Source: an uncultured delta proteobacterium
Lineage (GTDB): Bacteria > Myxococcota_A > Polyangia > Polyangiales > B10-G4
Reading direction: 5' to 3'
Assembly (NCBI GenBank): GCA_963727445.1
Contig: CAVSGI010000010.1
Location: 1,472,001-1,536,000, forward strand
Length of the DNA: 64,000 nucleotides
Shown here: piece by piece, positions 3,624-51,762 of the stretch
Layout: every line of letters starts with the position of its first letter
How positions within the stretch are numbered: the stretch's first letter is position 1
Position numbers and translations under genes: made by a program
The notes under the pieces: model-generated
Told to the model about the DNA's origin: nothing
Database searches by the model: none
What the model saw: only the letters and a program-made list of their open reading frames with translations

Positions 3624-5600
3624 TCAATGGGCGAGGAGCGCCTCGGCGGCGTCCAGCAGGGCATCGGCGCCGGACCCCGCGTGGGCGTAGGCGCCGCGAT
3701 CGAAGCGCACCAGGGCTGCGTTCCAGCGGGCGCGCGCGAGAGGCGTGTCCGGTTCGCCGCTTCTCGCCTCACCCCGTGAGTCTCCGCCGCCTGTCCGCTC
3801 GAAGACTTCGATGGCGCGGGCGCGAAGCGCGGCCCGTTCAGCGCGAAAGTCTCGGCCCTCGTGGCAGCTTTCGCAAACGACCGGCGACACCGCGAAGGTG
3901 TGCCCGCCGCCTCGCTCGACGTCCGCTTCTGAGCTGCCGTGACAAGCGAGACAGCCCCCCGAAATCTCCGCGTGAGGTGCGGGCGCTCCGAGCGGGTCAC
4001 CGGAGGCATCGAAGCCTCCGCGCCCCACGACCAGCGCGGTGGCGCTCGCCGTCGGAAGATCGAAGCCCTCCATCGGCGCATGGCAGGTGGTGCAGATCCG
4101 CGCCGGATGCTCGCTCAGGCTCGACGACACGCCGGAGAGGAGAGCAGGGAGCGGTCGGCGGCGCAGGAGCGCAGGACCCGAACCGGCGGCGTGCGGCGCG
4201 TGACAGGTCGCGCAGCCCAGCCCCTCGACCGTGACCTCCCGCGGCGTGCCGTCCTCTGCTCGAACGCCGTGAAGGAAGCCATCGGTCGTATGACAACTCA
4301 GGCACCGCGGGTCGGCGTCGAGCCCGTCGGTGCGCGCGGCTCGGGACATGCGGTTGCCGAGAAAGGCGACGACGTGACCGTAGCGCGGGGGCGCGTCGTG
4401 ACAGGTGGCGCAGACGTCGGTGCGCAGGATGCGCGTGCGCGCGCTCGGCTCCGGGATGGCACCCGGACCATGGCAAGCGGTGCAGCCGACGCCGCTCAGG
4501 CGACGGATCTCCCGCGGAAGTGCGTCGTATGCACCGGCATGGCCACGACCCGGAGCCGCCTCGCCCAGCGCGTCGGCGATGGCGACGAAGCCCCCATCGT
4601 CGGTGCCGGGCTCGCCGAGGGTGTGGCAGCCCATCGCGCAGCCCGGCGTGTAGCTCTCGTCCTCGACGAGGCGTGAGAAGACCGTGGTCATGGGGCTCGC
4701 TGACGCATGCTCGGTCGCCGCGGCGTGACACTCGCTGCGTCCGCAGTCGAGGGGGGTCGAGGCGTGGGAGCCTGCGAAGAGGGAGAGCGCGAGCTCGCCG
4801 CTTTCGTTCACGAAGCTGTAGCGACCAGTCCCGCGCGCGACGAAGCGGCGGATCCCCTCCGCCACCTCTTCGAAGATGGGCGGCTCCGCGTTCGGAGGTC
4901 CCTGAACCGAAGCGAGGTCGCTCCCGCGCACATAGAACGCCACGTGGATCGGCACCGAGGGCATCCCGGTCGCGCGCGCCGCGGCGTGAAGCGTCACCTC
5001 GTCCTGTCGGGTCGCGCCATCGGCGAGCGTGATCGCGAGCTTCAGGGTCCAGGTCCCGCGCGTCCGCGGCGAGATCGCGATCACCCCGTCGCCGCGCGGA
5101 AGCATCCCCAGCGCGGAGGCGAGGGGCGGCATCCGTCCGCGGACGGTCGCACCGTCGGCGTTCAGCTCCGGGAGCTCGGGTCCCTCGCTCCGCCATTCGT
5201 AGCGCGCGCCCTCCATCGTTTCGCATTCGCTCTCCACGCGCAGCTCGAAGCTCTCGCCGAAGCCGATCTGGTCGCGCTCGCCCACGATCTCGTAGAGCGG
5301 CTGGAGCGCGAGGATCGGATCCACCGCAGCCGCGCTCCTCTCCATCACAGCCGGGCAGGTGCGATCCGTTTGCACGCGCACCTCGCCCACCGGTCGAATG
5401 GAGAGCGCCCAGCGCCCTGGGCCGCGCGGCTCGGCCGAGACCAGCGCCTCGCTCGGGATCGTCACCGGAGGCTCTGCATCGGCAGCGCCGCGAAACGCCG
5501 GCACGATCACGTCGACCAGCACCGGAGCGGGCAGCGACTCGTCCGCGCACGCCGCTCCGACGACGAGCCCCAGGAGCAGAAGCGCGCGCCGCCCCCTCAC
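3624..5600 (-). CDS. Multiheme c-type cytochrome lipoprotein
   Basis: GTG start overlapping the upstream stop; lipobox VVGAAC; seven CxxCH plus CX3CH (CAMGCH) and CX4CH (CGRSECH). Confidence 0.85.
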   Translation of the reverse strand: MRGRRALLLLGLVVGAACADESLPAPVLVDVIVPAFRGAADAEPPVTIPSEALVSAEPRGPGRWALSIRPVGEVRVQTDRTCPAVMERSAAAVDPILALQPLYEIVGERDQIGFGESFELRVESECETMEGARYEWRSEGPELPELNADGATVRGRMPPLASALGMLPRGDGVIAISPRTRGTWTLKLAITLADGATRQDEVTLHAAARATGMPSVPIHVAFYVRGSDLASVQGPPNAEPPIFEEVAEGIRRFVARGTGRYSFVNESGELALSLFAGSHASTPLDCGRSECHAAATEHASASPMTTVFSRLVEDESYTPGCAMGCHTLGEPGTDDGGFVAIADALGEAAPGRGHAGAYDALPREIRRLSGVGCTACHGPGAIPEPSARTRILRTDVCATCHDAPPRYGHVVAFLGNRMSRAARTDGLDADPRCLSCHTTDGFLHGVRAEDGTPREVTVEGLGCATCHAPHAAGSGPALLRRRPLPALLSGVSSSLSEHPARICTTCHAPMEGFDLPTASATALVVGRGGFDASGDPLGAPAPHAEISGGCLACHGSSEADVERGGGHTFAVSPVVCESCHEGRDFRAERAALRARAIEVFERTGGGDSRGEARSGEPDTPLARARWNAALVRFDRGAYAHAGSGADALLDAAEALLAH

Positions 5601-6463
5601 CCGCCCTCCACGCAGCTCGAGAGCACGCACCGCCGCCCTTCGGAGCAATCCGGGGTGGTCCAGCACTCCCCGCGCGGCAGACGCTCGGGAACACACACGC
5701 CGCCCGCGCGCACGAGCCCGTCGTCGCAGGGCCCGGCGCCACCGACCGCGCCATCCGCCCCCTCCGATGGCCGGCAGACCCGATGGATCATCGGCCGATG
5801 CTCGAAGTGGCACTCGCTCGCGGGCAGGTCGGCGGGCCGCTGCGGCGAGAGGTCGACGAAGATCTGGAGCGTCTCGCCCGGCTCCTGGCTCGGCGCCTCC
5901 CCCGACAGCCATCCGATCGCGTCGGGCCCGGGCACCACACCGGCCGGCGCGCTCCGCGTGCGACAGAGCACGACCCCGCTCACCTCGGAGCATTCGGTCG
6001 GCCCATCGCTGGGGAGCGCCGGAAAGCGTTGGACGCACGTGTCCGTGTCGCAGGAGAACGGCCGCACCAGCGTCGCCACGCACCGCCGCTCGCTCCCGGT
6101 GCCAGCGCAGCGCCAGCGGGCGTCCTCGGGGAGCAGAAGCGCAGGGACCGGGCGTTCCACCGGGATCACCGCCTCGTCGCGATAGCAGACGCGATGACCC
6201 GCGCCGATGTCCACGCACGTCGCGTCCGCGACGTCGCTGGCCGCGGGCGCCGGGACGGGCACGCCGAAGGCCACGACCTCGGCGTGCTCGACCGGCGACG
6301 CCGGCCCGTCACACCCGACCACGCCGAGTGTGAAGAGCCCTGCGATCAGCGCGGCGAGCAGACGGTTTCGACCGCCGCCGCGCAGTCCCCCACGCTCGCG
6401 TCGACGTCGAGGCTCGGGTCGTGTCCGAAGTTCTGGCAACAGAAGCCGTGAGCCACGCAGCAA
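5597..6463 (-). CDS. Cys-rich hypothetical lipoprotein (true start probably nearer 6350-6390)
   Basis: LLAALIAGLFTLGVVGC lipobox, many Cys, coupled to the cytochrome gene by a GTGA overlap. Confidence 0.65.
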   Translation of the reverse strand: MLRGSRLLLPELRTRPEPRRRRERGGLRGGGRNRLLAALIAGLFTLGVVGCDGPASPVEHAEVVAFGVPVPAPAASDVADATCVDIGAGHRVCYRDEAVIPVERPVPALLLPEDARWRCAGTGSERRCVATLVRPFSCDTDTCVQRFPALPSDGPTECSEVSGVVLCRTRSAPAGVVPGPDAIGWLSGEAPSQEPGETLQIFVDLSPQRPADLPASECHFEHRPMIHRVCRPSEGADGAVGGAGPCDDGLVRAGGVCVPERLPRGECWTTPDCSEGRRCVLSSCVEGG

Positions 6464-7254
6464 TCCGAGTCGTAATAGACGGGCACGTCAATCGGCACCG
6501 GGATGGGGATGCCCGGGTCGTCGCAGCCGTCCGGGATCGTCGTGGTCTCGGTGCAGGCGCCCCAGCTTCCGTCGGGCGCGCATTCCTGCCGTCCCCAGTA
6601 GCAATAGACCGGGTCGTCGCAGTAGCGCCACGCGCCGGGGACGCATCGCTCTTCGCAGACGCAATCTGCGCCCGGCGGGCAGGTGTCGTCGCCGCCGCCG
6701 TCGTCGGTCGTGCCTGGACAATCGCAGCCCGCGTCCGTGTCCATGCAGTCGACGTAGCCGTCGCAGTCGTCGTCGATGCCGTTGCCGCAAACCTCGAACT
6801 CGCCGCAGGAGTCGCCGCACCCGGGCATGGTGCCATCACAGTCCTCGTCAGCGCAGTTGTCGGGGATCTCGACGACCGGCTCCACGTAGCCGTAGCAGGG
6901 GCCCCACGTCGAGAACTCGGCCGAGCTGGCCTCGCAGGTCTGCGATCCGTCGCCGCAGAGGCCCATGTTGCGCTTGGCGGGATCGAGGGGCCAACAGCTC
7001 TGGGTCTCGCCCGCCACGCAAGGACAACCGTCATCCACGCGACCGTTGCGGTCATCGTCGAGACCGTTGCCGCAGGTCTCGCTCGCGGCCGCCGGAGGTC
7101 CACCCGCGTCGCCTCCGGTCGCGCCTCGTCCGGAGCCCATGGTGGAGTCGGGCGCACCCGACGCGTTACAGCCGATGAGGACTGACGACATCAGGAGGAG
7201 CGCTCCCCATCCGGCGCGAAAGGACTTAATCGGGGCTTTTTCGGTGATCTGCAT
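6346..7254 (-). CDS. Cys/Asp-rich lipoprotein with putative metal-binding (MopE-like) repeats
   Basis: VLIGC lipobox; ETCGNGLDDDRNGRVDDGC, EIPDNCADEDCDG, EVCGNGIDDDCDG repeats. Confidence 0.8.
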   Translation of the reverse strand: MQITEKAPIKSFRAGWGALLLMSSVLIGCNASGAPDSTMGSGRGATGGDAGGPPAAASETCGNGLDDDRNGRVDDGCPCVAGETQSCWPLDPAKRNMGLCGDGSQTCEASSAEFSTWGPCYGYVEPVVEIPDNCADEDCDGTMPGCGDSCGEFEVCGNGIDDDCDGYVDCMDTDAGCDCPGTTDDGGGDDTCPPGADCVCEERCVPGAWRYCDDPVYCYWGRQECAPDGSWGACTETTTIPDGCDDPGIPIPVPIDVPVYYDSDCCVAHGFCCQNFGHDPSLDVDASVGDCAAAVETVCSPR

Positions 7255-44501: not shown

Positions 44502-46331
44502 TCACCGCCGCGGGCAGGCCCACTCGCCGAGGGGATACGCGCCGATGTCGACGGACGCGACGCCGAAGAACTCACCGACGCCAGCGCCGACGGCCGGGCT
44601 CGTGGCCGACAGGTGCAGGTCCGCCGGGGCGCCGACGAAGTCTGGGTCTGCCGAGATGCTGCTGCTCTCCTCGTCGAACTCGCTCCGAAACTCTGGCAGG
44701 GTGTAGGGCGTGCCCGAGTACTCGCCGCCGGTCCAGTTCGGACGCAGATGGATGTCTGCCTGGGTGTTGTCGAAGAAGAGGTTGTTGAAGGAGCTGTAGT
44801 GCCCCACGTAGTCGTCGACCGTGGTGGTCGTTCCGCCGCTGTGGAGGTAGAACCCCGCGTCCAGGCCGGCGAAGATGTTGTTGAAGAAGCGATGGCCGGT
44901 AGGCCCATCGAAGCCCAGGCGGATGCCGACGCCGCCGCCGTAGAAGTCGTTGTTGAAGACCCAATTGTCGTCGCTGTCCTCGGCACTGCCCGGCAGGCGG
45001 ACGCCGACCCGAGCGTTGACCACGACGTTGCCGTAGATCCGCCAGTGGCCCCCTGGTCGATACTCGGCGTCCGTCGGCTGACAGCCGTCGGTGTTCGTCG
45101 CGGACCACACGCAGCGGTAGCCACCTGGCTCGAAAGCCGTGTTCACGTCGTGGATGTAGTTGTAGCGGGCGATCAGGTTGGAGACGCCGCTCTTGACGCC
45201 TATCGCGGCCTGGCCCGGGATGTCGAAGACCTCGTTGTACTCCACGACGTGGGGGTTGTCCGGGTCGGAGACCATGAACGTGATCCCCTTGCTGTTCGAG
45301 ACGCCACCCCAGTAGACGGAGTCGAACACGACGTTGTAGCGGACCAGCGCCCCTCCCGAGCTCCAGATCCGCATGCCGTAGGAGTTGTCGTTGCCGTTCG
45401 AGGTGTGACCGAAGACGTTGCCCTCCACGACGATGTCGTCGGCACCTTCGAAGAAGATGGGCTGCGGCTGCGCGTAGTAGATCTCCAGGCCACGCACGAC
45501 GAGGTGGTCCGACCAGAACCGGCCGAGACCCCGCTGGCTCAGCTCGTACACCTCGTCGTTGGGGTCCTCACCCGCCGGTGGATAGAAGTAGATGAAGCAG
45601 CCTTCGTTGTCGCCGAAGCACTGATTGCCGTCGGCGTCCGCCTTCGTCCAGTGGTCGGGGTCGACCAGGTTCGAGACGTTGTCGTGGTCCCGGCCGCCGT
45701 CGAGGTCCGACTGGTGGGTGACCCGCCGGTCCCCATGGAACATTGCCTTCGGATCGTTTTCGAGGAACCCGGCCGGCGTGCGCCAGATGTTCGCATCGTA
45801 CGACTCCCAGCTTCGTCCCTCCGTGCTCAGCGATCCGTAGATCCGCACGCGCTCGCCCGGGTATCCGCGAATGGTCACGTAGGCGGTCTCGGTCCCGTCA
45901 TCGATGCCGACGTCGTAGGAGGGCTCCTCCATCACGCGGTAGAGGCCTTCGCGAATGGTGAGCGTATCGCCCGGGGTGAGGGCGGACAGGCCTTTTCGGA
46001 TGCTGCGGAATGGCGACTGCATCGTGCCCGGGTCGTCGTCGTCACCGGTGGTGGCCACGAAGTACTCGGTGCCCACGGTGGACAGCGGCGTCGTCTCGCA
46101 CGAAACCGGGTCGATGCAGGCGCCACAGTCGAGGACGCACGTAGTGCAGTCTTCGCCGCCACTACACACGTCGTCGCCGCACATCGGCGCGCCCCCGGCA
46201 TCTGCTCGGCCCGCCGCGTCGGGAGGGTCGCTCGCGTCCGGGAGCGGGCTCGCATCGCCTGCGCTCATGTCATTCGAGGTGGCGCAACCGAGGAGGCACA
46301 CCATCAACGAGCAGTAGCAAAATCGACCCAC
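44502..46331 (-). CDS. Parallel beta-helix (pectin-lyase fold) lipoprotein
   Basis: GGAGG RBS, LLGC lipobox, YFVATTGDDDDPGT..PFRSI, GDTLTIREG, C-terminal DPDFV...DLHLSATSPAV..DIGAY. Confidence 0.87.
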   Translation of the reverse strand: MGRFCYCSLMVCLLGCATSNDMSAGDASPLPDASDPPDAAGRADAGGAPMCGDDVCSGGEDCTTCVLDCGACIDPVSCETTPLSTVGTEYFVATTGDDDDPGTMQSPFRSIRKGLSALTPGDTLTIREGLYRVMEEPSYDVGIDDGTETAYVTIRGYPGERVRIYGSLSTEGRSWESYDANIWRTPAGFLENDPKAMFHGDRRVTHQSDLDGGRDHDNVSNLVDPDHWTKADADGNQCFGDNEGCFIYFYPPAGEDPNDEVYELSQRGLGRFWSDHLVVRGLEIYYAQPQPIFFEGADDIVVEGNVFGHTSNGNDNSYGMRIWSSGGALVRYNVVFDSVYWGGVSNSKGITFMVSDPDNPHVVEYNEVFDIPGQAAIGVKSGVSNLIARYNYIHDVNTAFEPGGYRCVWSATNTDGCQPTDAEYRPGGHWRIYGNVVVNARVGVRLPGSAEDSDDNWVFNNDFYGGGVGIRLGFDGPTGHRFFNNIFAGLDAGFYLHSGGTTTTVDDYVGHYSSFNNLFFDNTQADIHLRPNWTGGEYSGTPYTLPEFRSEFDEESSSISADPDFVGAPADLHLSATSPAVGAGVGEFFGVASVDIGAYPLGEWACPRR

Positions 46332-46537
46332 AGAGACCTCCTGACGTGCTGAGCGGAGGGCAATTTCGGTGTTCGCCAGCGTCTGCCTCCGCTCCCTTCA
46401 CAAAGCGTGATCGCGGTCGCCGCGTCCAGGCATCGCTTCTGAGCTGCTCTGAGCTGGCCTCGGATCGTCCGCGCATCTAAGTGCGGTTAAGCGAGGCGCG
46501 GTGGCTCGCCCCAGCCTCCATCGCCCAGGATGGAGAC

Positions 46538-48304
46538 ATGGTCGAACGAGGGCTTTGTTGCGCACTGGTCGCCTTGTGCGCGTGTACCGGGGGGGTGGTG
46601 GGCTCGACGAGCCCCGAGGACGGAAGCGCGCCGGTACCGGCGGACGGCGGGGTCGACGCCACGAGCAGCGGCCCCGACGCCGCTCCGGATGGGGCGGCAC
46701 GGGACGCGGAGATCCCACGAGATCCGGGGCCATCAGACGCCCCAGGCGGACCGATCGTCGACGCTCCCATCGTCGGCTGCGAGGACGCCGACCGTCCCGC
46801 ACGCCGGCTCGCGAGCCCAGACGAGGTTTGTGAAGCGGTGGATGGCGCGCGCTGCTGGTACGTGAGCCCCGAGGGCAGCGACGATGCTCCCGGTACCTTC
46901 GAGCAGCCGTTGGGCAAAGCGCAGGAAGCCGCCAAGCGCGTCGGGCCTGGCGACATCATCTATCTGCGCGGAGGGGTCTACGACGAGGACAACGCCTTCG
47001 TGTCCAGAGTGAACCAATGGAGCAACCCCGACGCGGGGGTGCAGCACGCCTTCTTCCGCGCGGGGTCGATCTCCTTGCCCGACTGGGCCGGCGGCGACAA
47101 CTACGACGTGGCATCCGGAACCGAGGAAGCGCCCATCGTCCTTCGCTCCTTCCCCGGCGAGCGGGCCTGTGTCTCAGGCGCAGGCGGAATCGGGTTCGGC
47201 AGCTTGAGGACCGAGATCGCCTATTGGAGCGTCGAGAACGTCACGCTCCACGGGGCCGCCATCGGCATCGGGGGCGGCCGTGGCACGGCGGACGCCCCTG
47301 AAAACCAGACGCACGAAATCACCGTGGCCGGCAACGAGGTCTTCGGGGTTCAGGAGAGCTCCGGTCACAACACGGGGCTCGTCAAGGTCGACCGGGGAGA
47401 CGGCGGCGGTCCCTACGACATCACGATCGAGAGCAACATCCTTCATGAGCTCTATTGCCGAGACAGCGATGGGGTGGTGCGTGGATGGGACACGATGCAC
47501 GACGCACAACACTACGCGGCGATCACGACGCTGAGCTGCGAGACCTACTTCGGCGTCGAATGTGGCGGCAACGGTGCGCTCACCGCTCGCAACAACCACA
47601 TCTATCACGTCCCCCAGGCCTTCTTCCTCAAGAACCCGGCGGTGGGCCCGTTCCATCTCTACGACAACGTCATCCACGACATCGGGAGCATGGGGAAGTG
47701 GTCGCCTTCGAACATCACCTTCGAAAACAACCTCGTCTATGGAGGGATCGGTCGAATCGACCTCGGTGGCTCCGGTGGCAGTGCCGAGACCACGGGCGTC
47801 TACGAGCGCATGGGCCGCAATCTGACCGTGCGAAACAATACGTTCATCGGCATGAACACCCTGGTCCACTTTCGGATCTACGCGTCCGGCCACACGGTCG
47901 AGGGCAACATCATCCAAGGTCTGTTCTCCATGGACCAGGCCGACTGGGACCACATGGGGTACATCTTCCAGTCGCAGGGATGGGTCAACCCGGACATGGA
48001 GCCCAACATCGAGCTGTCGCAGCTGGCGCGCGAAAACACCTTCGATGACAACTGCTTCATCACACCGAACCACGACTTTCTCGCCTACGGCCGTCGCTTC
48101 GATCCGGGCACCGGAACGGAGCTCACGCACCTGAGCCTCGAGGACGCCCGTACGCGCCTGTCCTACGAGCTGACCAGCGACGTCGTCGATTCGTTGGAGG
48201 AGGCGCTGGTCGAACCGACGACGGGGGACTACCGCGTACGTGTTGACGGCCCGTGCGCTGGTCGCGGAGCCACGCCGCCCGACTGGGCCAGGTCGATCCC
48301 ATGA
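46538..48304 (+). CDS. Parallel beta-helix lipoprotein, paralog B of 41543..43315
   Basis: LCAC lipobox; shares long motifs with paralog A (AITTLSCETY, RNNHIYHVPQAFF.KNPA, WSPSNITF). Confidence 0.87.
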   Translation: MVERGLCCALVALCACTGGVVGSTSPEDGSAPVPADGGVDATSSGPDAAPDGAARDAEIPRDPGPSDAPGGPIVDAPIVGCEDADRPARRLASPDEVCEAVDGARCWYVSPEGSDDAPGTFEQPLGKAQEAAKRVGPGDIIYLRGGVYDEDNAFVSRVNQWSNPDAGVQHAFFRAGSISLPDWAGGDNYDVASGTEEAPIVLRSFPGERACVSGAGGIGFGSLRTEIAYWSVENVTLHGAAIGIGGGRGTADAPENQTHEITVAGNEVFGVQESSGHNTGLVKVDRGDGGGPYDITIESNILHELYCRDSDGVVRGWDTMHDAQHYAAITTLSCETYFGVECGGNGALTARNNHIYHVPQAFFLKNPAVGPFHLYDNVIHDIGSMGKWSPSNITFENNLVYGGIGRIDLGGSGGSAETTGVYERMGRNLTVRNNTFIGMNTLVHFRIYASGHTVEGNIIQGLFSMDQADWDHMGYIFQSQGWVNPDMEPNIELSQLARENTFDDNCFITPNHDFLAYGRRFDPGTGTELTHLSLEDARTRLSYELTSDVVDSLEEALVEPTTGDYRVRVDGPCAGRGATPPDWARSIP

Positions 48305-48474
48305 CCGTGTCACCCGATTCACCCCGTCCCGAGTGGCTCATGTGCGAAGACTTCGAGGGCGCCGACTGCATCGAAATGATGATGAAGATCAACACGCCCG
48401 GCGCGAGCGACGGGGAGATGGCCTTCTGGATCGATGACGAGCTCGCGCACTCGGAGTCAGCCTCCTGCCGGTGA
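48301..48474 (+). pseudogene. Probable internally deleted remnant of a concanavalin/polysaccharide-lyase-like domain gene
   Basis: ATGA-coupled 57-codon frame joining WLMCEDFE almost directly to CIEMMMKINTPGASDGEMAFWID. Confidence 0.5.
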
Positions 48475-48615
48475 ACCAGGTGGTCCACCTGGTCCGGTGG
48501 TCCACCCTGCGCTCCGCCCCGAGCTTCCGGAAAAGCGTTCGATTCCCGCACCTGAGCTCGTCGGCACGCGCCGTGCTGAATCTCATCGAGCGCGACGACG
48601 CGCGGGAGGAAATCG

Positions 48616-50382
48616 ATGGAAAGAAGCGTGGGGAAAGTGTGGATCTTGGGGGTGCTGCTCGCCGTGGCGGGAGTGGGCTGCATCGAAGTCACACCGTGGC
48701 CGGGGGCAGAGGGCCCGGGCTCGGATTCGGGATCGACGATGACCGATCCCGACGCGGGCACGATGGAGCCAGAGCCCGACGCGTCCTCGGAAGTGGGCGC
48801 GGTGGGCATGTTCCTCCAGATCGGCGACGAGACGCCCTCGCAGCTCTATGAGCTCACGGTCGACGCGGACACCTACGCGGAGATCGTCGACGCCGTGGGG
48901 CACGTGCCTGACGGCTTGATCGAAGGCGAGCCTTCGCGCGAGCCGGGGACCCGGAGCGTCACGCCGGTCGTCTCGTCGGTCGCCGACAGTCGGATCTTCG
49001 AAGGGATCAGCCGGAGCGAACGCGGGGCGTCGACCGATGATCTGGGCAGGATGCGGATCCTCTTCGGTGGCGGCGTCGCCCAACCGATCGGGCTCCTTCT
49101 GCCTGCAGTACAGAAGGTTCGCGCGGCCGCCGCCCGCAGCCACACCACGCTGGACCAGGTCGACTTCGAGCTCACCTTCGAGCTGCCACTCTCGGACACC
49201 GAAGTGTCGACAATCACGTACACGGGGCTCGAGAACCAGCCCCCGCCGAGCCCGCCCCCCTTCGTCGACGTGAGCGGCGACAGCTGGGCTGCCTCACCCG
49301 AGATGAGCGACGAGCTGCGGGCGCGGCAGCTGATCGACGTGGAGACCGATTTCCGGGTCGATGGAGATCTCCGCTTCAGCCGTGCCTCGGATGGCTCCCT
49401 GCTCCTGCAGCCCTGGACCATGGACGAGCCAGACTCGGCCGACTACACGATCTGGCGGGAGACCGGCGGCCAGCGCTCACTCGTGCTGGACATCCAGGAC
49501 CGGATCGGTGGCCGTGTGCTTCACCGTTTCCGCATCCCGCGCGCCGACCTTCCGACGGACATCGACTCCGGGATGATGTCTGCGTCGATGTCCGGCTACC
49601 TGAAGATCGGGGACATCAAGGGCGAGTCCACGGACGCACGTCACGAGATCGAGCTCTTCGACACGCACTTCGTGCGGCCCCCCACGAGCACCGAGTTCGA
49701 TCTGGCGCGCCGGCAGCTCGGGCTGTTGTCCACCCGCAGCACCGCGACTCTTGTCGACAGCTGGACCACCAACCGCGACGCGACCATCCGGGCACTTCGC
49801 GCGGCGAGCGTGCAGGCCAACGATCAGGAAGGGCTCCTCTGCGTGACGATGATGCCCCTCCTCGGAGAGATGATGCTGGCGCTTCAGGCCGGTCTCGACG
49901 ACGGTTCGATCCCGGAGACGCGCGAGCTTCGACGGATCCTCGCGGATTACTACGAAGCCTACGAGCTCCTCGGTGAGCCGGAGCATCACGCGTTCATCGG
50001 CGGCGACCTCGCGTCCGCGGCGTACGACCGTCCCCTCGACGCCGCGGACGCGGAGGTGGCTTGCGGCGCCATCCCGCGCATCATGGGCGTCTGGGACGAC
50101 ACGGACATCGTCCACATCCTCGTCGACTCGGACGCGCAGGCACTCGGTGATGACGGCAGGGACCTGCTCATCGGTGGCAGCGGTCGCTACTTCGACGACC
50201 TGGTCGTGGAGCTCATCGAGCGGTTGGACCGGCTCGCCGCCGATCCCACGAGCGAGCCGGTGGCCACACCGATCGACGCTCTGCTCATCATCAATCGGGT
50301 CGGCGAGACGCTCGACCAGCACCAGTCACTGGCCGTCAGCCGTTACAGGATGTCGGACGTGCTCGTCAGCAGCTACCGCTGA
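48616..50382 (+). CDS. Hypothetical lipoprotein carrying short motifs of unrelated families (mosaic)
   Basis: GGAGG RBS; AGVGC lipobox; embedded IGLLLPAVQKVRAAAAR, YLKIGDIKGESTD, GDDGRDLLIGGSG, TPIDALLIIN, MSDVLVSSY. Confidence 0.8.
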   Translation: MERSVGKVWILGVLLAVAGVGCIEVTPWPGAEGPGSDSGSTMTDPDAGTMEPEPDASSEVGAVGMFLQIGDETPSQLYELTVDADTYAEIVDAVGHVPDGLIEGEPSREPGTRSVTPVVSSVADSRIFEGISRSERGASTDDLGRMRILFGGGVAQPIGLLLPAVQKVRAAAARSHTTLDQVDFELTFELPLSDTEVSTITYTGLENQPPPSPPPFVDVSGDSWAASPEMSDELRARQLIDVETDFRVDGDLRFSRASDGSLLLQPWTMDEPDSADYTIWRETGGQRSLVLDIQDRIGGRVLHRFRIPRADLPTDIDSGMMSASMSGYLKIGDIKGESTDARHEIELFDTHFVRPPTSTEFDLARRQLGLLSTRSTATLVDSWTTNRDATIRALRAASVQANDQEGLLCVTMMPLLGEMMLALQAGLDDGSIPETRELRRILADYYEAYELLGEPEHHAFIGGDLASAAYDRPLDAADAEVACGAIPRIMGVWDDTDIVHILVDSDAQALGDDGRDLLIGGSGRYFDDLVVELIERLDRLAADPTSEPVATPIDALLIINRVGETLDQHQSLAVSRYRMSDVLVSSYR

Positions 50383-50448
50383 AGTCCGAGCGATCGGAGC
50401 CCTCGAGGCGCCCACCGGACCCAGCCTCGTCTGACGGCGAAGCAGGTC

Positions 50449-51762
50449 TCAGCTTCGCGGCGGGATGGCAAGGCCGTGGCGCAAGAGGAGCTTCGCGACA
50501 GGTGAGTCGGGGGCGGAGGCAGCATAGCCGAAAGTCTCTTCCGGGTCGTCCGGATCGCCGCCGAAGAGGGCATAGTGCATGGCTGTCCACCCCTGGTCGT
50601 CGACCGCGTCCAGCTCCGCACCGTGTGTGAGCAGGAGCTCGAGCATCTCGAGATGTTTGCGCGAGGCGGCGACCATCGAGGGCGAGCGCCCATGGCGCTG
50701 ATGGCTCGGGTCCGCTCCGCGGTCGAGCGCGAAGCGGGCGACGTCGATGCGCTTGGCGCGGACCGCGTCGTACAGAGCGCCGTTGGGATTCGGCTCGCGG
50801 TCGAACGCCCACTGAACGCTCGCGATCGGCGCGCCGTAGAGGATGGTCCGCTCCAACATACGCTCGGTACGAGCGCGCCTTTCCCAGAGCAGATCGGCCG
50901 TCTCGGTGTGTGCCCCGCGGAGCGCTTGGAACAGGGGGTCGGACTTCCTCTTCGGGCCGCGGAGCCGCGCGCCCGCGTCGAGCAGACGGCGCACGACGGC
51001 GGTCTGCCCGGTTCGGCTCGCCGCTGACAGCGCAGTCGTGTATCCGTGCGGGTCGGCGTCGTCTGGCGACGCGCCTTCGGACAGGAAGCGCTCGACGGCG
51101 GCGAGATCGCCATCGACCGCCGCATCGATGAGGCGCACGTGGCCGTGCCCGAGCAGCAGTGGGAGGGCCTCGGGCTGCGGATGGAGCGCCACCATCCGAG
51201 CCGTCACCGCATCTTTGGGATCGACGCCCGGGTGCACCCAGTCGGCGCGAGCGCCAGCGGCGAGCAACCGCTCGGTGACCGCCAGGTTGCCCTTTCGCGC
51301 GACTGCGCTCTTCAGTGCCGGGTCGACCGCCATCTCCTCCGGCTTCTTGGCGAGGAGGAGCTCCACCAACTGAAGGTGCCCGTTGTACGCGGCAAGCGCC
51401 AGCGGGCAGAACCCGAAGGCCCCCGCCGGCCGGCGATACTCGTGCAGAAGCACCTCCGCCACCGCCAGGTGGTTGCTCTGCGCGGCGATCGAGAGCGGCA
51501 ACACACCCGCGTATATCTTCTGGTGCGCGTTGGCGCCGTGCAGGAGCAGCAGCGCCGCGAGCTCTGGGTCGTCGTCGTTGGCGGCGAGGTGCAGGCCGCG
51601 GAACTGATTCGGGACGAAACCCGGGGTCGAGAAAGGGCTTCGCGCTCGCCTCGAGCCGATGAGCACGTTCGGATTGGCGCCGAGGCGCAGGAGTCGCTCC
51701 GCCTCCTCGAGGTCATAGTCGAGGATGGCCTGCCGCAAGGCTTGGTCTTCGGCCTGGCCCAT
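50449..51762 (-). CDS. Ankyrin repeat protein
   Basis: Multiple LHLAA..D, PLALAAYNGH, TALSAA..G, GWTAMHYA and LL..GA repeats. Confidence 0.88.
   Translation of the reverse strand: MGQAEDQALRQAILDYDLEEAERLLRLGANPNVLIGSRRARSPFSTPGFVPNQFRGLHLAANDDDPELAALLLLHGANAHQKIYAGVLPLSIAAQSNHLAVAEVLLHEYRRPAGAFGFCPLALAAYNGHLQLVELLLAKKPEEMAVDPALKSAVARKGNLAVTERLLAAGARADWVHPGVDPKDAVTARMVALHPQPEALPLLLGHGHVRLIDAAVDGDLAAVERFLSEGASPDDADPHGYTTALSAASRTGQTAVVRRLLDAGARLRGPKRKSDPLFQALRGAHTETADLLWERRARTERMLERTILYGAPIASVQWAFDREPNPNGALYDAVRAKRIDVARFALDRGADPSHQRHGRSPSMVAASRKHLEMLELLLTHGAELDAVDDQGWTAMHYALFGGDPDDPEETFGYAASAPDSPVAKLLLRHGLAIPPRS

Follow-up and report, generated by a model that had tools for sequence, protein, structure and literature searches.

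Bacterial proteins can be gathered onto a common hub by short linear motifs, of which the sliding-clamp-binding peptide of many replication proteins is an example, and motif mimicry is known from pathogen effectors. Short repeats can also be inserted in frame into coding genes, for which the Rickettsia palindromic elements are the precedent. Hcp (TssD, PF05638), the tube protein of the type VI secretion system (T6SS), folds as a beta-barrel, and little else in the tube is as strongly conserved as its N-terminus. The DUF1559 prepilins (SBP_bac_10, PF07596) reach 41 or more genes per Planctomycetales genome according to the text of PMC8567305 available to us, which deals with the expansion and fractionation of the N_methyl plus SBP_bac_10 family and does not describe motif sharing; its supplements may list DUF1559 variants. 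The part of the DUF1559 literature accessible to us contains nothing on stripped copies of these peptides in unrelated exported proteins, and a full-text literature search for the peptide core 'LLPAVQ', anywhere in a word, returned no paper. Here we analyse a 64,000-nucleotide stretch from an uncultured delta proteobacterium (contig CAVSGI010000010.1; the whole stretch is called the window hereafter), in which one gene, at 48616..50382 on the + strand (ATG to stop, stop codon included), encodes P0001, a lipoprotein of 588 amino acids (aa) with one peptide of DUF1559 and one of Hcp, each stripped of its parent domain. The recurrence of both peptides in unrelated exported proteins of several phyla suggests an unrecognised docking or mimicry signal.

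P0001 resembles each of these described systems in part. With the DUF1559 prepilins it shares the stretch from I17 to R33 of the mature protein, but it has neither the prepilin leader, which is replaced by a lipoprotein signal, nor the membrane helix, the SBP_bac_10 domain or the C-terminal H-X9-DG region. Hcp is resembled in its N-terminal peptide and in weak colinear blocks; however, the peptide that is N-terminal in Hcp is internal in P0001, no Hcp domain passes the cut-off, the region of the later blocks is predicted to be helical, and none of the 16 neighbouring open reading frames (ORFs) scanned belongs to a T6SS family. Moreover, P0001 is an exported lipoprotein with a signal peptide and a lipobox, whereas Hcp is cytoplasmic and signal-less. 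As in the hub-binding and mimicry motifs, a short near-invariant peptide recurs in unrelated proteins, in segments that may be poorly ordered, and selection acts at the level of the peptide, but the peptides considered here are found in extracytoplasmic proteins, two of them together, and in at least five phyla. The Rickettsia palindromic elements likewise place short foreign-looking peptides within otherwise unrelated proteins, but in-frame repeat elements conserve DNA, whereas synonymous differences have saturated the DNA that encodes LLLPAVQKVR, and conservation is confined to the peptide.

Results

Two peptides of P0001 match DUF1559 prepilins and Hcp

A preliminary description of the gene, made from the letters alone, had seen in it a lipoprotein with no recognisable whole domain, studded with nine short signature peptides of other families. 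The 588-aa ORF and all nine peptides lie exactly where it had placed them, and the lack of a whole domain is upheld by searches of Pfam, NCBIfam, PDB sequences and PDB structures. Pfam at E<=10 returned T6SS_HCP at 12.8 bits (cut-off 23.5) and one noise match, nothing else; at this threshold neither the SBP_bac_10 domain nor the prepilin leader with its N-terminal methylation motif (PF07963) was matched. NCBIfam gave 0 families, no PDB sequence matched better than E 0.57, and Foldseek with the predicted model of P0001 gave 0 matches against the PDB at E<=0.001.

The pilin-like peptide, IGLLLPAVQKVRAAAAR (aa 158-174, 49087..49137, +), is a copy of residues I17-R33 of mature DUF1559 pseudopilins, with numbering that starts at the Phe behind the cleavage site of the Fimbriiglobus ORF in locus L015, and 16 of its 17 residues are identical to that stretch; the alanine variant of the peptide is itself present in real prepilins (loci L006, L007 and L012). 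The proline inside this stretch is the counterpart of Pro22, which type IV pilins conserve. When genomes were scanned for IGLLLPAVQ with a three-row alignment as query, at least 637 stretches matched; the loci that were read encode canonical DUF1559 prepilins and come from Gemmataceae, other Planctomycetota and Fimbriimonadaceae. Scored on a profile built from 11 of these prepilins, residues 158-178 of P0001 gave 34.0 bits against a maximum of 3.5 in 1000 shuffles, with the proviso that the prepilins were drawn via the same peptide and the profile is biased towards it; the identity of the peptide is nevertheless plain. The local DUF1559 profile matches P0001 over its positions 25-45 only, and the 'FTLIELLVV' helix, which precedes the motif in 11 of 11 real prepilins, is missing from P0001. 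These scores exclude chance resemblance for the pilin-like peptide.

The second peptide, YLKIGDIKGESTDARHEIEL (aa 328-347, 49597..49656, +), is a copy of the N-terminal strand and loop of Hcp. The T6SS_HCP match sets residues 328-345 of P0001 on positions 1-18 of the 129 of the profile, and seven of the eight best tblastn places in 72,556 plasmids were annotated Hcp N-termini, each at E 0.5-8. The segment GESTDARH occurs exactly in a Gemmataceae Hcp, with a score that 0 of 300 shuffles reach. With an unbiased profile of four Hcp proteins, the best match in P0001 again fell at 328-346, on the N-terminus of the profile, and was reached by 6 of 1000 shuffles. Chance resemblance is excluded for the Hcp N-terminal peptide as well.

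While these two peptides beat their shuffled controls, several of the other seven look ordinary. MFLQIGD, TITYTGLE, PPFVDVSGD and GVWDDTDIVH had no family match. Conservation within the family of P0001, described below, is middling for TITYTGLE (rank 196 of 497) and below the median for MFLQIGD, PPFVDVSGD, GVWDDTDIVH, GDDGRDLLIGGSG and YRMSDVLVSSY. The proposed RTX nature of GDDGRDLLIGGSG failed, since HemolysinCabind (PF00353) gave no Pfam match at E<=10 and the peptide is predicted to be helical (residues 513-519 of 511-523 are modelled as helix) and is poorly conserved (rank 398 of 509), with 3 of its 13 residues differing in the relative P0002. TPIDALLIIN had been taken for part of a dockerin, a view not supported by the 0 matches to PF00404 in the genome of P0001 or by the modelled helix at residues 552-587. 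The planctomycete dockerin-like motif fared no better: among 61 Planctomycetota genomes, 0 contained the pattern P-x-D-A-L-L-[VIM]-I-N and 3 a relaxed form of it, in a search whose positive control on the genome of P0001 itself worked.

P0001 belongs to a small family in which the motif sites are fixed

P0001 is a member of a small, undescribed family of lipid-anchored envelope proteins, with an N-terminal mixed alpha/beta part and a C-terminal helical bundle capable of forming a disulfide. An exhaustive phmmer search with P0001 of 1.84 billion representatives gave 30 matches at E<=0.001, of which 8 align along the scaffold and 22 share the motifs only. The scaffold relatives are P0002 (79-80% identity), P0003 (35%) and P0005, P0008, P0012, P0014, P0015 and P0028 (24-27%), every one of them a metagenomic singleton. 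A search of 300 further genomes from the order, among them a member of the same genus, detected the scaffold in 0. A word-indexed search with the family profile returned P0002 and two motif or noise matches, no more. The single locus obtained in a metagenome scan with P0001 was judged spurious, as it has no convincing + strand ORF at the match.

Conservation along the scaffold was expressed as mean pairwise identity in windows over 8 sequences (P0001 and its relatives, with P0002 left out). By this measure LLLPAVQK is the most conserved window of the family (rank 1 of 497, mean pairwise identity 0.93). Relatives carry at the Hcp-like site the variants YLKIGDIKGES and YLKFDGIDGES (both Hcp registers), YMKVKDIDGES and YIRMGEVDGEV. 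The motif sites are fixed across the eight scaffold relatives, down to 24% identity. Homologs with different or reshuffled motif cassettes at equivalent sites, which the preliminary description had envisaged, were not seen: the same two peptides are found there.

The same peptides recur in unrelated exported proteins

Of the 22 phmmer matches outside the scaffold family, 21 carry 2-8 copies of the pilin-like peptide, in the form [IV]G[LM]LLPAVQKVR[ED]AAAR and outside any prepilin context, and one carries 15 copies of the Hcp-like peptide. Together with the lipoprotein P0032 (below), the 21 proteins make a set of 22 that contains 92 copies of the pilin-like peptide, in which P, V and Q hardly vary. 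In most of the 21 the sequence repeats every ~47 aa, and Asp/Gly-rich strands flank the peptide on either side. The tandem-repeat exoproteins with 'LIG[LM]LLPAVQKVREAAAR' slots (P0004, P0006 and others) share with P0001 the presence of domain-stripped peptides in exported proteins, but they are beta-solenoid-like, with 2-8 copies and Planc_extracel-like N-termini, whereas P0001 is a non-repetitive lipoprotein scaffold with a single copy. One such tandem-repeat protein, P0016, was found in 0 of 151 sampled Planctomycetota genomes, so that the taxon of the tandem type is unconfirmed. P0010, in turn, is built of 15 Hcp-N-like peptides in tandem, and after every one of them comes a further Hcp-like piece (T6SS_HCP E 1.6e-10).

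The pilin slot of some metagenomic exoproteins (P0018, P0021, P0024 and P0029) is sometimes filled by signature peptides of other families. P0029 has a metzincin zinc-site peptide (Astacin E 6.6e-4), with no protease domain, in the slot that usually holds LIGLLLPAVQKVREAAAR; P0024 has DUF1559 and baseplate-V/gp5-like pieces there; and P0021 combines Hcp pieces (T6SS_HCP E 3e-20) with a DUF1559 C-terminal piece and FG-GAP-like pieces. Such slot-filling is the pattern that had been imagined for P0001, but in another protein class. P0027 is a true prepilin in which repeats that are also present, identically, in P0011 break the sequence exactly where LLLPAVQKVREAAAR ends and the CNNNMKQ motif should follow. 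Either the shared peptide served as a site of recombination, or a repeated word led to a chimera in the metagenome assembly.

Outside the repeat proteins, P0032, a 336-aa lipoprotein of Lewinellaceae (Bacteroidota; locus L014, 5569-6579), shares with P0001 only AMSGYLKIGDIKGEST and IGLLLPAVQKVR.AAARS, in reversed order, and a search of 200 further genomes from its order returned 0 with a relative of it. P0032 also contains 'AIHNY...SFPP', which resembles the next conserved stretch of DUF1559 ('LAAHNYHD...LPP' in L015). The genome of P0001 itself encodes a second orphan lipoprotein of 240 aa (contig 17, 95364-96083, +; L048:2365-3084) with degenerate copies of both peptides, the Hcp-like GYARIDGID and then the pilin-like ALLLPAVQSAREA; it had 3 weak matches only (E 8e-5 to 8e-4) in 300 genomes of the order.

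A Bryobacteraceae metagenome-assembled genome (L005) encodes an Hcp-like protein of 190 aa (6028-6600, +) with three copies of LLLPAVQKVREAA, and the acidobacterial Hcp-like protein P0020 has a 'GGG..QPIG' lead-in before the motif, as P0001 has with FGGGVAQP (49063..49086, +), the Gly-rich lead-in to its pilin-like peptide. Three acidobacterial genomes (L037, L038 and L039; ~1501-1878, +) encode 126-aa proteins that join the Hcp-N peptide with a longer pilin stretch, IIAILIGLLLPAVQKVR. This mini-protein has no Pfam family and consists almost wholly of the Hcp-N peptide, an 'ADGSV...HPGGVN' stretch and IIAILIGLLLPAVQKVR; ESM Atlas gave no usable match for it or for P0001. Its context in two genomes (L040 and L041) is one of conserved housekeeping, with signal peptidase / mannose-1-phosphate guanylyltransferase-like genes and secreted proteins. 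Locus L034 pairs YKLTDVLVSSV with IGLLLPAVQKVRES, and peptides like SDVLVSSY, a C-terminal peptide of P0001, stand beside LLLPAVQKVR both there and in P0030.

The carriers of the motifs span at least five phyla, genomes without the parent families included. The genome of P0001 (9.47 Mb in 27 contigs, 85.6% complete), to judge by its gene content probably that of a myxobacterium, gave no PF05638 match apart from the peptide of P0001 and no PF07596 match over the cut-off, and the Lewinellaceae genome matched neither Hcp nor DUF1559. A Gemmataceae genome has 71 DUF1559 and 3 Hcp matches, and the Bryobacteraceae genome has one DUF1559 gene and two Hcp genes. The original claim that P0001 holds signature peptides of DUF1559 and Hcp without their domains is borne out, and extends to a wider class of peptide-studded exported proteins. 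In the manner of short linear motifs, the two peptides recur in unrelated proteins and are more conserved than their flanks, with an ascertainment caveat taken up in the Discussion.

The conserved unit is the peptide

LLLPAVQKVR was compared at the DNA level in 15 copies from the window and ten loci, which gave 15 distinct DNA strings. Of the 30 bases, a median of 7 differ between copies; the difference is 3-7 among three copies that share a gene, and 6-13 between the P0001 copy and every other. GC content at third codon positions (GC3) in the motif windows of P0001 is 0.71 (rank 36 of 571) and 0.88-0.90 (rank 391 of 571), against a gene mean of 0.87. The copy in P0032 of Bacteroidota is written in host-type, low-GC leucine codons, with a GC3 equal to that of its gene. 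Fifteen DNA strings for one peptide, together with host-like codon GC3, argue for selection on the peptide and leave no trace of recent DNA capture. The proposal that segments of foreign genes were captured in frame into P0001 is not supported by these results: the sites are fixed, the DNA has diverged, GC3 is within the range of the gene, and none of the 16 neighbouring ORFs scanned encodes a reverse transcriptase (RT) or recombinase.

Predicted structure and further Hcp-like blocks

AlphaFold2 (AF2) on a 9-row alignment gave for P0001 a model that is poor overall, with a mean predicted local distance difference test score (pLDDT) of 58. Residues 339-588 (49630..50379, +) form a C-terminal helical-bundle domain with pLDDT mostly 67-92, in which the family alignment shows Cys409 and Cys483 to be invariant. 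Most of GVWDDTDIVH, GDDGRDLLIGGSG, TPIDALLIIN and DVLVSSY lies within modelled helices of this bundle. Both conserved motifs fall in segments with pLDDT<50, 152-217 and 316-338, the latter unmodelled, which would be weak evidence for their exposure. In an AF2 model of a tandem-repeat protein (pLDDT 53.5) the chain forms beta-strands, and the motif segments are the least confident. A wide fold search with VIA found generic helical bundles only, at Z 9.6 or less, under the meaningful level for helical proteins, and no Hcp was among the Foldseek or VIA rows obtained with the P0001 model of mean pLDDT 58.

Beyond the N-terminal peptide, P0001 has four blocks colinear with Hcp. FGGGVAQP is the first of them. 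CGAIPRIM (50062..50085, +) is weak and alone not significant; SGRYFDDL (50179..50202, +), which overlaps the end of GDDGRDLLIGGSG, scores 36 against SGKHFDDL of a Bryobacteraceae Hcp, a value that 2 of 300 shuffles reach; and the C-terminal SDVLVSSY (50353..50376, +), with a score of 31 against TDVVVSSY, is alone inside the shuffle range and significant only within the chain. As a four-block chain against one Bryobacteraceae Hcp, P0001 scores 116, against 82.6 +/- 5.5 for shuffles (0 of 300 reach 116) and a maximum of 112 in 1499 real control segments. P0002 scores 122, and P0003 and six other relatives are at the null level (79-92). Since only P0001 and P0002 exceed the null, C-terminal Hcp-likeness is a trait of the P0001/P0002 lineage alone; part of the chain rests on residues ancestral to the scaffold (invariant C483, A485, R524 and D538, near-invariant D527). 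The best match of P0001 among PDB sequences (E 0.57, not significant) lies in the same region: GDDGRDLLIGGSGRYFDDLVVELIERL aligns with a conserved N-terminal stretch of the phosphoglucomutase 7piz, and the aligned stretch at 50146-50226 (aa 506-537) overlaps SGRYFDDL.

The gene and its surroundings

The N-terminus of P0001, a signal peptide with lipobox (48616..48681, +), has the hydrophobic stretch 'LLAVAGVGC' and then Cys22, the predicted lipidation site; Gly at position -3 is atypical for a lipobox in this reading of the sequence. All 6 family members (of 6) whose N-terminus is present likewise have a Cys behind a hydrophobic stretch, and we read P0001 as a bacterial lipoprotein with predicted lipidation. 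The signal is followed by an acidic, Gly/Pro/Asp-rich tether of low complexity (aa 23-60, 48682..48795, +; pLDDT below 50). With a GC content of 0.67 and a GC3 of 0.87, the gene is like its neighbours. These encode two beta-helix lipoproteins, an ankyrin-repeat protein, a Ser/Thr kinase with a PEGA domain, a STAND NTPase, a FecR-like protein and several ORFs that belong to no family. The two beta-helix lipoproteins, divergent and of ~608 aa, lie directly upstream of P0001 at 44502-46331 (-) and 46481-48304 (+); both are right-handed beta-helix proteins (NosD / Beta_helix), and one has a Cys-rich N-terminal stretch.

The 16 ORFs scanned at 36-63 kb of the window include no RT, recombinase, T6SS or pilus gene, and no enzyme gene adjoins P0001 among them. 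A scan of 48200-50520 found no promoter-like site and no terminator-like match flanking the ends of the P0001 gene; two overlapping terminator-like matches lie upstream on the minus strand, at 48393-48409. Among sequencing runs, one DNA run matched with a small share, giving two short contigs identical to 48400-48519 and 49139-49297 and three further short unrelated matches; no contig spans a motif, and no RNA run was listed. The existence of P0002, an independent relative, argues against a misassembly of P0001.

Discussion

We read the two peptides of P0001 as selectively kept docking or mimic peptides, a plausible account that we favour tentatively and would not yet call probable, with an exposure, a partner and a mimicry function that we infer. 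The preliminary description had held that captured segments are maintained as mimics, decoys or epitopes; maintenance as mimics is, with the same reserve, the best available reading, and the capture half of that claim is unsupported. P0001 would display two short linear motifs on segments that the structure model fails to order. One of them copies the part of the alpha-1 helix of pseudopilins that surrounds the conserved proline (in DUF1559, I17-R33), the other the Hcp N-terminal strand. Whatever reads these segments in pseudopilins and in Hcp would also bind P0001, which would ride on that recognition or compete with it. Because neither parent family was found in the genome of P0001, the partner would likely be a conserved envelope factor not yet linked to the motifs, or a protein of other bacteria, competitors or prey.

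Several observations weigh against this account. The gene neighbourhoods yielded no candidate partner and no conserved neighbour, the contexts differ in every genome looked at, and a family made up of singletons that recurs in 0 of 300 genomes of its order offers by its distribution no hint of biology. Conservation of the Hcp-like peptide within the family is no more than moderate (rank 97 of 504): 6 of 8 relatives keep it, and P0015 has lost it. The genome of P0001 is 85.6% complete, so that Hcp and DUF1559 count as not found in it. The low pLDDT at the motifs may stem from the shallow alignment and not from disorder, and the near-invariance of the peptide is partly a matter of ascertainment, as the carriers were found through the motif. 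A bolder version, which we consider distinctly speculative, would make the carriers of at least five phyla exported decoys or caps that copy assembly-critical peptides of the machines of other cells and interfere with them or hitch onto them; the targets in the case of the P0001 and Lewinellaceae genomes would be competitors or prey, and the proteins with tandem slots would serve as an all-purpose scaffold for peptide display, open to peptides of other families as well.

The alternative to which we give most weight, although it seems unlikely, is that the peptides are relics or a structural core: a pseudopilin-like protein would long ago have been fused or rearranged with one like Hcp, and in the scaffold descended from the two only the folding-critical peptides would survive, read by no partner. 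It would account for the four colinear Hcp-like blocks, which lift P0001 and P0002 above every control segment, for the acidobacterial mini-proteins that join Hcp-N, the 'ADGSV..HPGGVN' stretch and the pilin helix, and for the 'GGV.VA.GDV' that distant relatives have ~45 residues after LLLPAVQ, which resembles the C-terminal 'GGVNLALGDASV' of a real DUF1559 protein and stands in the same order. However, a relic motif should decay together with its flanks, and here the flanks have decayed and the motif is intact. The motif order is reversed in the Lewinellaceae and contig 17 lipoproteins, arrays in which as many as 8 copies follow one another on varied linkers cannot be relics, the colinear blocks are missing in P0003 and the six other relatives, and the region of the later blocks is predicted with fair confidence to be helical, whereas Hcp is a beta-barrel. 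Somewhat less likely still is that the peptides are sites of a modifying or processing enzyme common to the carriers, such as a side-chain N-methyltransferase, an anchor-shedding protease or a cross-linking enzyme. Directly upstream of the gene with three LLLPAVQKVREAA copies in Bryobacteraceae L005 there is indeed a 513-aa S-adenosylmethionine (SAM) methyltransferase (4304-5845, +; Pfam MTS E 1.3e-10, 'QPPF'), a weakly similar 531-aa reading frame (E 3.6e-6) lies ~4.5 kb from the two Hcp genes of that genome, and the tandem copies on low-complexity linkers in P0025 and P0031 resemble multi-core precursors. But no full-length relative of this methyltransferase was found in the genome of P0001 (the best is a 294-aa frame aligned to query residues 141-260 only) or in the Lewinellaceae genome, no enzyme gene stands next to P0001, and 15-17 near-invariant residues exceed the typical sites of proteases and methyltransferases.

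That an RT or recombinase inserts short segments of abundant foreign genes in frame into a surface scaffold, where they are exchanged as cassettes, strikes us as very improbable. The peptides of other families in the tandem-repeat slots of P0029 and P0024 fit this scenario, as does the interruption of the P0027 prepilin exactly at the motif by repeats identical to those of P0011, but P0027 could also be an assembly chimera at the repeated word; in P0001 itself the sites are fixed down to 24% identity, the DNA differs at 6-13 of 30 bases, GC3 is ordinary and the scanned ORFs contain neither enzyme, and the Bacteroidota copy has the leucine codons of its host. We give least credence of all to pattern-seeking in the 588 aa of an ordinary orphan lipoprotein. 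Chance does explain MFLQIGD, TITYTGLE, PPFVDVSGD and GVWDDTDIVH, as well as the supposed RTX and dockerin peptides; shuffles also reach the score that SDVLVSSY has by itself, and the C-terminal peptides lie in predicted bundle helices; for the two main motifs it is refuted by the shuffle tests and by their joint recurrence in unrelated proteins. What probability these readings leave over goes to explanations beyond those considered.

The docking or mimicry reading would bear on more than P0001. Few gene families of Planctomycetota that still lack an explanation are as large as DUF1559, and we know of none offered for the invariance of the pilin and Hcp N-terminal peptides. If these are selectively kept without their domains in unrelated exported proteins, also where a genome lacks both families, each of them is probably read by something, and the two peptides, of 17-20 residues, would be baits for finding that reader. 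The system would then also show bacteria mimicking the motifs of other bacteria, of which there are few cases, and not those of a eukaryotic host.

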